The translations under genes were made by a program, and so were the position numbers. Positions 7,501 through 48,633 of a DNA stretch of 64,000 nt are shown piece after piece (within the stretch, counting starts at the first letter, position 1; the number at the start of each line of letters is the position of its first letter). Source of the stretch: Balanoglossus misakiensis. Taxonomy: Eukaryota; Animalia; Hemichordata. The notes beneath the pieces were generated by a model. The model saw nothing but the letters and a program-made list of their open reading frames with translations, was not told where the DNA came from and made no database searches. Location: NCBI GenBank assembly GCA_040954595.2, contig CM082582.2:7008063-7072062 (forward strand), written 5' to 3'.

Positions 7501-10500
7501 CATGGCCCTCTGTGCCTAAGCCTCTGGCCCAGTAGCACACCGATATTTCATTCAGGGTGGGGAACCCACCGTCACTGGTGACGTCAACGTAGGACGAGGC
7601 GTCTAGAACTAGAGTCTTACCTCGCAGGTTCATCAGCTCACCATATACTGCAATCAAAGGGAGCAGCATTATCAAATGCAAATGAATCGACAAGCATAAG
7701 AATTGCGAAAATCTAAACACGCCAGGTATAATCTAAAATCACGAACGAGATGTTTTATACATTTATCGCTGTCTTAATGCACGGCACTGCAGCGGTTAAA
7801 TGTGTTCTATCCGCGAGTTAGGCATCGTTTACATCACGGATTATGATAATGTTTAAGTCCTGGATTTTTCATTATTACACTGATCACTCTTGTGATACAG
7901 AAAACCATATATCTTAGCTCTAAATTTGGCAGGCTCCTTGAATGTGCCATTTAGCAGTGTTTTGTGTGGCACGGATCATCAAAGCACAATTTCATGTAAC
8001 TTAAATAATGAGCTATATTTGTCACCTAGGCGGCCGTAAAGGGTCCATCAACTCAAGGCTCCGATAAATGACTGTGGCGTTCGATATTTCAAATTTGTCG
8101 GCTCTGGCCAAGGATAGCAACTCTATCTGTTTATTTTGTTGGTTCGGATGGATTCCAGATCTAATCATTCTTGGCTTATTATATATACATGTACATCTTG
8201 ACTAGAACATTCAGGAACTGTTTTGCACTATTTAACTCTACAAGCGTTATCAAATTGAAAATTATGACTGGTTCTGTCATCAGCACGGCAAAAGTACAAG
8301 AAAAATCGAGGAACCGTTGCGGGAATCTGAGATCAACAAACACCATGATGATTCTTTAAGAACTTTGATACAGCCAGCACTATATGTCTTTCCTCCAGAA
8401 TGTCTACATACCTGACACGACTCCAGTAAGATAAATGAAGATCGTGAACATCATCTGCAGACGGCAAGCTGAATACTGGTGGTCTTTCTGTTACCGGACT
8501 CGCGTCTCCCGCAAATGCCAGAGAACGTTTCCGAGAGTGTGATTTATGCGTGCGTGCAGCGCCCTCTCGGTGACATATTTCAGCATTTTTGCGTCACTGA
8601 TTTGCTTTATTTAGGAGGTAGGATCCGTCACAGGTGACAGCCAATGAAAATCATAATTCCCAACTGACTTTTTGAGTGTGTTGTTCTTGGTCAAGTATCT
8701 ATTAGGGGTTGTCTTTATCCTAGACAACCTCCAGTGGCTTTGAAGAATCATCAATGAGACAGCATGACCAGTCAAATACTTGCTTAGATACCAGTTTATT
8801 GCCAAGTTATAAGGATTTCCAGGAAGAGAAAGAATTTGAGAAATCAAGAGAGAAAAGTTGGTGTTCATTAAAATTCACATTGATCAACATTTATTTGTTT
8901 TCGGAACGCGTGTCCCACTTTCGGTTTCCAGATCCATGACTTCAACTAAACACGGGTGAAGGGTTTTCGTTTTGTCAATCAGCTGAAAATGATTCAACAA
9001 CGTACAGTAAGTATGGGTTTACCAGACAACAAATGACTTTTCGGTTTACATTCACTCATTGCAAACACTTACACCATCGTCATAGAGTGTTGACTATACA
9101 GGGGGGGGGGTGATTTGACGGTTTGCACACACACACACACACACACACACACACACACACACAGACACACACACACACACACACACACACGCACACACAC
9201 ACACACACACACACACACACACACACACACACACACATACGCACACACACACACACACACACACACACACACACACACACACACACACACACACACACAC
9301 ACACACACACACACACACACACACACACACACTTACCTTGTCCAAAGACTTCTAATTCACAAAGGTAAATTGCTCGCATTGCACCCTCTTTGATGAAAGT
9401 CACATATCTGCCTGTGGTGGCGCCCCATGAACACTCCCAAAACAATTCACCACTTGATACAAAAACATTACTCTCGCTGCGTAGGCATTCTCGCTCGGTG
9501 CCGTCCATATTATCACCGACCATTATAACAATGTCGCCATACCCACCTTTTAATAAATAATAGCAATTTTAGGCTTCAATAAACTCATAATGTTTTAATA
9601 CGTTAAGATAATATACCCTTACGGACAAACCTTGCCAGTTTTTAAATAGGCAAATTGGAAATCTGTTGAAAGCGATATTCTGCATATCAAAAGCATCTAC
9701 TTACAGCCTGTCCCTGACATACTGGCGTCGCAACTTGTCGGAAACGCAAATTTGACACTTTCAATTAGATATTGACTTCCCAAATCAATCTGAAATGTTG
9801 GTCGGTCCACCAATGGACCAGAATCAGCACAGGTTAGTGGATTTCCGTCGACGAGATAAGGTAGTGTGTCAAATGCATCTGGGTTCAGCCCTATACCACT
9901 CACTGGTTTATTGAGAGCAAGATTATTTTCAACGACTAAATAGGTAAACAAAACAGACAAACACGTGTTATTTCTGGATGACGATGTTTTCCTTACTTGT
10001 TTTTGGTAATCGTAGATATGTCATCGGGATAAAATTAACTTATTCACTTTTAAACTCAGACAGACAGACAGTCGAAAGACAGACAGACGGACGGACGGAC
10101 GGACAGACAGACAGACAGACAGACAGACAGACAGACTGTTTATAATATAACCCTTCCGGTTTACAATAAACACCGATAAATAAATAAAGGCCGGGAGTTC
10201 GTTTCCAACGTAATTATAGTTACATTGTCCGGTTTTTATTTGTTGATGTTAAATAGTTGACTATAAAACGAAATAAACAAATTAATACGAAGAGCGAAGA
10301 GCCCCAAGAAAGGCCATTGTTACTTACCTTGTCCAAGGACTTGTAATTCACAAAGGTAAGTTGCTCGCATTCCTCCTCCTTCTTTGATTAAAGTTACATA
10401 TCTGCCTATGATATCACCAAATTCCAATGAGCACACCAATAACAATTCACCACCTGGTACAAATGCATTACTCTCCCTACGTACGCATTCTTGCCCGGTG

Positions 10501-46383: not shown

Positions 46384-48633
46384 TTACCTTGTCCCAAAGA
46401 CTTCCAATTCACAAAGGTAAATTGCTCGCATTGCACCCTTTTTCATGAAAGTTACATATCTGCCTGTGGTGACGCCCCATACACACTTCCATAACACTTC
46501 ACCACCAGATAAGAAAACATTATCCTCGCTGTATAGGCATTCTTGCGTGCTGTATGGGCATTTTCGCCCGGTGCCGTCAATATCACTGACATTGATAACA
46601 ATGTCGTGATACCCACCTTTCAAGAAATAATAGCCATTTTAGGCTTCAATAAACTCATAATGTTTGAATACGTTAAGATAATATACCCTTAAGGACAAAC
46701 CTCACCAGTGTTTAAATAGGCAAATTGGAAATCTGTTGAAAGCGATATACTGCATATCACTTGGTCGGATATTGCAGTCAAATTATATGCACAGTTTAGA
46801 CCAAATATTTATGTATTAATTATGAGTATACACCCCTTTCTGATATATCGCCTGGTCGTTTACGATAGTCAGAACTTGATAAGAATTCTATATCTGTTGC
46901 AGGCTTTCGTCAAATTCGGATAAAAATATTTAACTTTCTTGTTTTTGTATTTTAAGCGTATAAAATGCACTGTTAATTAGAAAAGCATCTACTTACAGCC
47001 TGTCTCTGACATACTGGCGTTGCAACTTGTCGGAAACACCAATTTGACACTTTCAATTCGTCGTGGACTTCCCAAATCAATCTGAAATGTTGGTCGGTCC
47101 ACTTTAGGACCAGAATCAGCACAGGTTAGTGGATTTCCGTCGACGAGGTAAGGTAGTGTGTCCAGTGTACCTGGTTCCAGCCTTATACCACTCACTGGTT
47201 TATTGAGAGCAAGATTATTTTGAACGTCGGGTACTAAATAGGTAAACAAAACAGAGAAACACGTGTTATTTCTGGATGACGATGTTTTCCTTACTTGTTT
47301 TTGATAATCGTAGATATGTCAACGGGATAAAATTAACTTATTCACTTTTAAACTCAGACAGACAGACAGTCGAAAGACAGACAGACGGACGGACGGACGG
47401 ACGGACAGACAGACTGACAGTCTGACAGACCTAAAGACAGACAGACAGACAGACTGTTTATAATATAACCCTTCTGGTTCACAATAAACACCAATAAATA
47501 AATAAAGACTGGGAGTACGTTTATAACGTAATTATAGTTTTATTGTCCGGTTTTTATTTGTTGATGTTAAATAGTTGACTATAAAACGAAATAAACAAAA
47601 TAATACGAAGAGCGAAGAGCCCCAAGAAAGGCCATTGATACTTACCTTGTGTAAAGACTTGTAATTCACAAAGGTAAATTGCTTGATCACTTCCTTCTTT
47701 AATTAAAGTTACATATCTGCCTGTGGTGACGCCCCCTGAACACGCCAATAACAATTGACCACCTGGTACAAAAATATTACTCTCCCTACGTATGCATTCT
47801 TCCCCGGTGCCATTACATTCATCACCGACCATGATAACAAAGTCGCTATACACACCTTTGAAGAAATGATAGCCATGTTATGCTACAATCAAAAACTCAT
47901 TATTTATAATGCGTTAAGATAATATACCTTTACGGACAAATCTCGCCAGTGTTTAAAAGACAAATTGGAAATCTGTTGAAAGCGGCATATTGCATATCAC
48001 TTGGTTGGATATTACCGTCAAATTAGGCACAGTATTGAACAAATATTTATGCATTAATTATGAATAATATTCACCCGTTTCTGATATATCTCTTGGTTGT
48101 TTACGATAGTCAGAACTTGATAAGAATTCTATATCTGTTGCAGGCTTTCGTCAAATTCGGATAAAAATATTTAACTTTCTTGTTTTTGTATTTTAAGCGT
48201 ATAAAATGCACTGTTAATTAGAAAAGCATCTACTTACAGCCTGTCCCTGTCCAAGTGTCGTAGCAACTTTCCGGAAACACCAATTTGACACTATGAATTT
48301 GTTGTGGACTTCCCAAATCAATCTGAAATGCTGGTCGGTTTACCAAACCACCAGAATCGGCACAGCTATATGAATTACCATCGACGAGGTAAGGCAGTGT
48401 CTTCAGCGTTGCTGGTTCCAGCCTTATACCTCTGACGGGTTTTCCCAATGCTAAATTGGTCTCGCCTGGAAACGCAAACGTTGGGAATGTTTACTGTTTC
48501 CGCGCATCCTAATATAAAAATGGTTGGGACAGAATATGCTTAACCCAGATGATGATAATAAAAATTGCTAACACTGACCAGATGTTTCTCTTAAGCCAAC
48601 TGCAACCGCCAACACAAATACCAATGCCTTCAT
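46384..48633 (-). CDS. Secreted F-type-lectin-like protein, copy 4: SP + 2 FTP domains (~320 aa)
   Basis: Exons 48633-48579, 48465-48238, 47855-47646, 47233-46997, 46616-46384. Total 963 nt, open frame, ends ...LCELEVFGTR*. Confidence 0.8.

Follow-up and report, generated by a model that had tools for sequence, protein, structure and literature searches.

Tandemly duplicated F-type-lectin-like genes lacking the fucose triad have diverged mainly by amino acid replacement in the acorn worm Balanoglossus misakiensis

Results

A 64,000-nucleotide stretch of the genome of the hemichordate Balanoglossus misakiensis (assembly GCA_040954595.2, contig CM082582.2, positions 7,008,063 to 7,072,062; hereafter, the window) contains a cluster of four intact minus-strand genes (g4, g3, g2, and g1, with ATG codons at 48633, 42436, 35035, and 12360) for proteins composed of domains that resemble F-type lectins. 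These are tandem duplicates predicted to encode secreted proteins of the F-type fold without the fucose triad, and their young copies have diverged mainly by replacements. We hold it somewhat more probable than its competitors combined that this divergence serves the recognition of different or fast-changing foreign ligands in innate defense.

A preliminary description, made from the letters of the window, had proposed four paralogs with 10 domains, and this count stands: g4 and g3 have two domains each, g2 and g1 have three each, and all frames are open. Every gene begins with a 55-nt signal exon, and each domain is encoded by two exons, A of 228-237 nt and B of 198-235 nt, whose phase-1 junction falls in a cysteine codon. 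Splice sites are GT-AG throughout, and the frames are unbroken until they end in small terminal exons (45885, 39596, 31337, and 8982), which lay beyond the range of the preliminary description. The N-termini are strongly hydrophobic and no later 19-residue segment scores above 1.44 on the Kyte-Doolittle scale; secretion is therefore predicted for all four proteins.

Replacement excess in the young copies

One intron shared by g4 and g3 (48237-47856 versus 42040-41659) has 2 differences in 382 positions, whereas the exon adjoining it differs at 17 of 228 nucleotides and 13 residues (Fisher P = 3e-6), in agreement with an earlier by-eye estimate of ~2 differences in a ~380-bp intron and ~13 residues in a 76-codon exon. 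Over both domains of these genes, exons differ at 39 of 903 positions and introns at 14 of 1283 (P = 2e-6). The g4-g3 comparison gave 38 nonsynonymous (N) and 3 synonymous (S) changes on 683 and 214 sites, respectively (P = 0.006), and the terminal-domain trio gave 26 N and 1 S (P = 0.006); silent steps were counted generously in these tests, which overlap in the g4 domain 2-g3 domain 2 pair. Counted per codon, the terminal trio contains 24 replacements and no silent change (P = 0.001), and noncoding sequence compared among the three genes shows 22 changes across 1449 sites. Unselected conversion simulated from the window's own domains produced ~5-7 silent changes in 27, with a probability of one or fewer ranging from 0.003 to 0.056 across six settings. 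Charge is altered by 23 of 43 young replacements, against an expectation of 33% (P = 0.004).

Codon models were also fitted. For exon B, model M0 returned an omega of 1.5, and the comparison of M8a with M8 gave P = 1e-5 with omega ~4 on 35% of sites; when gap-adjacent columns were removed (52 of 85 kept), P was 0.01. For the domain from residue 14 onward, M1a versus M2a gave P values of 1e-5 to 2e-5 on two trees, with omega ~3. Collectively, the N and S counts and the codon models (omega ~3-4) support the conclusion that the excess divergence of the young copies is amino acid change under diversifying selection, as had been proposed from the sequence.

Position of the variable sites

The preliminary description had placed the variation at five spots and equated these with five loops of eel lectin (AAA) named complementarity-determining regions (CDR1-5). 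The CDRs were set here from sequence anchors to the eel lectin, and the anchors support the equation. In two young trios, the five spots carry 23 amino acid changes in 94 codon positions versus 7 in 114 for the core (P = 3e-4), but they do not exceed all other positions (35 in 198, P = 0.21). Among young copies, the ADSG loop changed at 1 of 14 positions and the KEG loop at 2 of 14; equally dense changes after DLG and at residues 88-120 (28 of 84) had been overlooked. Sites with a posterior of at least 0.8 make up 11 of 44 positions in the CDRs versus 13 of 87 elsewhere (P = 0.23), and the corresponding counts with the intron tree are 5 of 44 versus 12 of 87, so that clustering of selected sites on the fucose-pocket loops, as in oyster bindin, was tested on two trees and not found. 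The five strongest sites, residues 54, 55, 89, 98, and 115 (AAA 69-70, 98, 110, and 125), all lie outside the CDRs; given this and the loss of the fucose triad described below, a concentration of the variable residues in fucose-pocket loops is not supported. An apparent CDR enrichment from separately fitted exons (P = 0.0005) was discarded, the exon A model having degenerated, and a joint fit was used instead.

In eel lectin, according to the sections of PMC5712786 drawn on here, the 123-124 turn lies on the lower side and strands beta4 and beta9 are at the bottom. Taken with the AAA positions of the strongest sites, this points to a variable strip that may follow the beta7-beta8 edge down to the barrel bottom, where tandem domains would meet. 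The Ptychodera flava relative P0109, in which four of seven in-domain repeat differences fall within residues 88-120 (P = 0.05), gives a weak independent hint of the same region.

Fold and rebuilt pocket

Exon A matches Pfam PF22633, and a profile of exon B matches the striped bass lectin FBP32 (E = 4e-6); the exon A profile also matches CBM32 weakly (E = 0.02). Exon A gave no match in a word-based protein search, although the profile search did find relatives, and single-exon searches of the PDB gave chance matches only. Exon A folded alone had a predicted local distance difference test (pLDDT) score of 43 and was unusable. The fold evidence comes from a model of the P. flava relative P0119 (mean pLDDT 68), standing in for the domains of the window. 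This model aligned with FBP32 (3cqo; Z 12.9, root-mean-square deviation [rmsd] 2.9, 117 aligned residues) and with eel AAA (1k12; Z 11.7, rmsd 2.8, 116 aligned), followed by CBM32 folds at Z 10.9. F-type lectins thus rank above CBM32 by ~1-2 Z, and the cysteine pattern and the GRY and LCE motifs are those of F-type lectins. Judged from this model, an F-type jelly-roll fold is supported for the window domains. Another protein, P0002, was dropped as an anchor because it carries discoidin rather than F-type domains.

In the portions of PMC5712786 used here, the fucose motif is given as H-x24-R-x-D-x4-R/K (His52, Arg79, and Arg86) and the cation motif as h2DGx. The His-Arg-Arg triad is missing from all ten window domains, so the cluster proteins are not canonical fucolectins. 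His52 is replaced by Asp36, which is Asp in 36 of 36 related domains examined; Arg79 corresponds to Pro64, a position held by Pro, Ala, or Ser; and Arg86, mapped by hand with AAA numbering taken from sequence anchors and parts of PMC5712786, is replaced by Gly or Val77, with no Arg there in any of the ten. The cation motif is kept, with LVDG, Thr/Ser33, Cys138, and Glu139 (equivalents of Ser49, Cys146, and Glu147) in 10 of 10 domains. Cys34, Cys138, Cys96, Cys114, Asp49, and Arg122 are equally invariant (10 of 10), which supplies the residues, and by inference the bonds, equivalent to the Cys50-Cys146 and Cys108-Cys124 disulfides and the Asp64-Arg131 salt bridge. The vicinal Cys82-Cys83 of AAA has no match, eight residues intervening between Cys67 and Cys76 in all ten domains, and CDR2 is shorter than in eel lectin by about six residues.

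Asp36, Thr22, Gly38, Cys34, Cys67, Cys76, and Cys96 are present in 26 of 26 domains from Ptychodera and Glandiceps, and Arg133 is found in 29 of 36 domains, with Gln in four window domains. This conserved set, with Asp36 and Arg133, suggests that the pocket was rebuilt and conserved and has not merely decayed. Additional cysteines distinguish individual domains: the terminal domains of g2-g4 (31750-31984, 40186-40414, and 46388-46616) have an insert of 7-9 residues bearing a seventh cysteine, and two first domains each gained a private cysteine, that of g4 at residue 89 and that of g2 at residue 18. These could form interdomain or interchain disulfides.

Relatives in other acorn worms

The profile search returned 77 proteins at E = 0.001; the ten best, nine from P. 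flava and one from Glandiceps, are all annotated as "uncharacterized." Relatives in P. flava and Glandiceps talaboti, including XP_070576171.1, XP_070576301.1, and XP_078000090.1, have the same noncanonical domain, and the window domains are 54-59% identical to the best P. flava domain. Three of these relatives sit on a contig whose length equals that of the contig bearing P. flava Top1, the gene next to the window's cluster. In a tree, the ten window domains group apart from those of P. flava and Glandiceps, with one long-branch row among them. The preliminary description had called the family young; from the sequence comparisons, this applies to the copies but not to the noncanonical subfamily, which is common to P. 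flava and Glandiceps. In XP_070576171.1 the four repeats hardly differ (eight columns), unlike the diversified domains of the window. The P. flava relatives occupy at least four contigs and have varied partners. Three relatives combine noncanonical domains with a canonical F-type domain, and some are fused to a chitin-recognition-like domain (a weak Pfam match, below the cut-off). No description of this subfamily was found in the literature searched, subscription papers lying outside it; reviews mention many hemichordate F-type domains.

Gene conversion and mosaicism

Exon A is mosaic (P = 0.0005 in a test like the pairwise homoplasy index [PHI] and P = 0.009 on silent sites alone). In exon B, a recombination signal was undetected (PHI P = 0.18) and the tree broadly agrees with the intron tree. 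Within its first-type background, g2 domain 1 has terminal-type codons near the loop after LVDG. First and last domains are ~20% apart at fourfold sites and 8% apart in introns. These results support the action of gene conversion or recombination on the cluster, as suggested earlier; conversion probably also keeps the introns similar. According to excerpts of PMC3924837, the primate red and green opsin pair likewise combines introns evened by conversion with exons kept apart by selection; the proteins are unrelated, and the likeness concerns genome dynamics only.

Transcripts

Three sequencing runs of one sample contain the region; none is recorded as RNA, and the tissue is unrecorded for the RNA-like run X3. 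X3 was treated as RNA because it covers exons only (11 of the 30 g4 bins and 12 of the 30 g1 bins) and its contig joints skip the 380-bp and 158-bp introns exactly at their CT..AC ends. All eight listed X3 variants in the last exon, called against g4, agree with g2. A spliced contig crossing the 158-bp intron fits the last domain of g1 with one other letter in 183. Another contig has a codon private to g3 without a second g3 variant and would represent an allele or a recombinant. Transcription and splicing of copies 1 and 2 and of a copy-3-like form are thus supported. The preliminary description had listed a lack of transcription of copies 2-4 among the results that would refute it; transcription was seen for copy 2 and the copy-3-like form, and no X3 contig was assignable to copy 4, although missing X3 coverage of g4-specific sequence and signal exons is no evidence.

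The deepest X3 contig matches no copy in the window, with 22 other letters and 9 gap letters relative to g1 domain 2. Part of its distinctive loop is also present in the DNA run X1, which implies further paralogs or a divergent haplotype. One contig joins a g2-type exon B to the third exon A of g1; trans-gene splicing is not claimed, because the two exon starts share ~44 identical bases and an assembly chimera is possible.

Discussion

The cluster works like oyster bindin and the eel fucolectin isoforms; its new elements are the rebuilt pocket and the second variable surface. Oyster bindin, in the sections of PMC5712786 consulted, has 1-5 tandem F-type domains, positive selection, recombination within the intron that splits the domain, a microsatellite ahead of every domain exon, and some isoforms that lack the triad; the cluster shares with it the tandem domains, the position of the intron, microsatellites ahead of domain exons, positive selection, recombination, and the absence of the triad. 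In that account, the selected sites of bindin cluster at the fucose pocket and the triad survives in some isoforms; the window differs in that 10 of 10 domains are triad-less with an invariant Asp for His, the strongest sites fall outside the CDRs, and there are several paralogous genes. The eel fucolectins (AAA and the A. japonica isoforms) and striped bass FBP32 share the fold, the calcium motif, and the disulfide and salt-bridge equivalents. The same source, as far as it was used, describes His52 and CDR4 as strictly kept and CDR1/2 as variable among eel isoforms, whereas His52 is replaced in the window. The sea urchin SpTransformer (Sp185/333) genes are, in the parts of the literature drawn on, likewise clustered, repeat-associated, and mosaic immune genes; the proteins are unrelated, so this analogy is again one of genome dynamics only. 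Tandem F-type domains, positive selection, conversion, and introns more alike than exons are therefore already known from oyster bindin and other families. What the cluster adds is an F-type fold whose canonical sugar site is replaced by another site conserved across acorn worms, and selection on a surface without a known ligand-binding role in F-type lectins.

Of the immune, allorecognition, and gamete roles named in the preliminary description, none is singled out by the sequence data, and innate defense is the most likely by analogy. Whole units, comprising ~3 kb of upstream sequence, the gene, the satellite-bearing last intron, and the terminal exon, would multiply by unequal crossing-over; gene conversion would keep introns alike and shuffle short exon tracts between domains, for example at the loop after LVDG; and selection would retain and add new residues. 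The rebuilt top pocket (Thr22, Asp36, Ser37, Gly38, Cys67-Cys76, and Arg133), conserved across acorn worms, likely holds a constant ligand or structure, and specificity likely varies in CDR1/2/4 and in the second strip that follows the beta7-beta8 edge and the bottom of the barrel. More speculatively, and with appreciable doubt, the F-type fold may serve as a variable scaffold in which an invariant acidic pocket is paired with a hypervariable edge-and-bottom surface, perhaps forming an interdomain cleft, diversified by short-tract conversion in a satellite-laden array; this would be a hemichordate counterpart of SpTransformer, FREP, or VCBP, and might bind proteins rather than sugars. Hemichordates stand between sea urchins and chordates, and the cluster is a compact, expressed candidate with measurable selection and defined residues; no diversifying recognition family described for hemichordates was found in the literature searched.

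Several observations weigh against diversification by selection for defense. Measured against silent sites, the 39 N and 10 S of the first-domain trio fall short of significance (P = 0.35), g4 domain 1 versus g3 domain 1 alone gives P = 0.12, and pN/pS is 0.5-1 in most deep pairs. CpG-type changes account for 10 of 52 young nucleotide changes, and among 18 of the 22 changes listed for the out-of-window X3 form, 12 N and 5 S codons set it apart from g1 domain 2. The exon A codon model collapsed to two classes (omega 1.7-2.3); the codon models were run with custom code, with branch lengths scaled from M0, naive posteriors, and no multinucleotide term; and the second patch was defined post hoc and mapped by alignment rather than on coordinates.

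Among other roles, it is unlikely that these are gamete-recognition proteins like oyster bindin, with a conspecific egg or sperm surface as the partner. The mid-domain intron and the microsatellite before domain exons are common to both systems, but bindin is described, in the portions of the published account available, as a few single-copy genes with an acrosomal product and a long N-terminal role, whereas several paralogs occur here and the P. flava relatives have varied partners.

An explanation without adaptive diversification, in which relaxed surface constraint is joined by gene conversion and CpG mutation and the introns look alike through recent conversion, is quite improbable. The terminal trio, in which none of 24 changed codons is silent, is unlike neutrality or unselected conversion, and charge changes exceed expectation. 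Such relaxation would account for the deep pairs with pN/pS near 1 or below, for variation over several surfaces, and for exon silent sites that are more diverged than introns (9 of 45 versus 31 of 376 in one first-last domain pair, P = 0.03).

Acorn worms feed by means of mucus. A role in mucus or feeding, in which secreted proteins sort particles or the resident microbiota and diversify for breadth, would suit the Pro/Thr-rich linkers of the relatives P0113 and P0117; rapid charge-changing turnover at ~1.5% intron distance probably fits antagonism better, and we regard this role as decidedly improbable. That g2-g4 are partly an assembly artifact, with two haplotypes in tandem and some differences allelic, can be nearly dismissed despite flanks 95-99% alike, given that three similar copies exceed two haplotypes and are distinguished by their numbers of domains, by indels, and by an inversion, and that the replacement excess holds even if two copies are alleles.

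Locus, neighboring genes, and repeats

The lectin cluster is flanked by a topoisomerase I gene and a pentraxin-pentraxin-EGF-EGF-PAN gene (Table 1). The Top1 exon at 56199-56507 shares 91% identity with P. flava and 81% with Saccoglossus and Glandiceps, more than with the other animals listed. The last donor of g1 is in phase with the first acceptor of the pentraxin gene (the exon near 7647), yet an intact terminal exon comes first, at 8982, and paralog transcripts use a terminal exon of this type. The loose ends of X3 contigs show the terminal exon, which makes a g1-pentraxin fusion less probable and speaks against a stop codon within the last donor site as the end of g2-g4. The predicted g4 terminal exon contains AATAAA at 45542 and 45353. 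On the plus strand, 790-3860 holds several exon-like open frames of another gene, three of which were tested without a Pfam match, and the 64-kb window has no Rfam match.

Table 1. Coordinates of genes, exons, and repeats in the window
Feature	Position	Strand	Remarks
g4 (copy 4)	46388..48633	-	signal exon 48633-48579; gene model, 320 aa predicted
g4 domain 1 exons	48465-48238, 47855-47646	-	
g4 domain 2 exons	47233-46997, 46616-46388	-	
g4 terminal exon (predicted)	45348..45885	-	last residue, stop, 3' untranslated region (UTR); acceptor motif and homology
g3	40186..42436	-	signal exon 42436-42382; gene model, 323 aa predicted
g3 domain exons	42268-42041, 41658-41440, 41031-40795, 40414-40186	-	
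g3 terminal exon	39059..39596	-	loose end of X3 contig enters g2/g3 form of exon
g2	31750..35035	-	signal exon 35035-34981; gene model, 459 aa predicted
g2 domain exons	34867-34640, 34257-34060, 33634-33404, 33021-32824, 32387-32157, 31984-31750	-	
g2 terminal exon	30798..31337	-	
g1	9337..12360	-	signal exon 12360-12306; gene model, 465 aa predicted
g1 domain exons	12192-11965, 11601-11386, 11164-10934, 10546-10328, 9935-9705, 9546-9337	-	
g1 terminal exon (predicted)	8606..8982	-	two residues, stop, 3' UTR; acceptor intact
DNA topoisomerase I (Top1) gene	54084-63200	-	long Lys/Ser-rich N-terminal exons
Pentraxin gene	~7650-4282	-	two pentraxin, two EGF-like, one PAN exon; no separate signal exon identified
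88-bp satellite array	13747..28814	.	AT-rich, 171 copies, 15 kb; between g2 and g1
1.6-kb tandem duplication of g2 3' end	28216..31666	-	yields spare terminal exon at 29710
Orphan terminal-exon remnant	13367..13657	-	upstream of g1
CAGA/CTGT microsatellite	47355..47454, 41153-41248, 33756-33875, 32509-32632, 10057-10136	.	introns before internal or last domain
246-bp segment	49089..49334	.	inverted vs g1, g2, g3; ~450-700 bp upstream of g4 start codon

The repeated unit spans ~3 kb of upstream sequence, the gene, and its 3' end, with flanks 95-99% alike among g2-g4 and ~90% for g1. The 88-bp satellite array has higher-order repeats, with near-identical blocks ~965 bp apart, and borders directly on last-intron sequence and the orphan terminal exon. 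The last introns of g2-g4 also hold 3-5 units of this repeat, and the range is 3-7 when the duplicated 3' end is included. The spare terminal exons (29710 and 13657) may be traces of earlier gains and losses. The CAGA/CTGT microsatellite is missing from the first such intron of g1, and long inverted repeats flanking the 246-bp inversion were looked for and not found.

Smaller differences among the copies were also noted. A 206-bp CA microsatellite (9126-9332) directly follows the last donor of g1, a position occupied by satellite units in g2-g4. Both g2 (31985-32156) and g1 (9547-9704) have lost ~210 bp from the intron that divides the last domain, through deletions with nearly the same start and different ends. 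Upstream of g2 there is a 213-bp local tandem duplication (36679-37104), and a 176-bp piece of the 3' UTR (8704-8879) recurs upstream of every gene.

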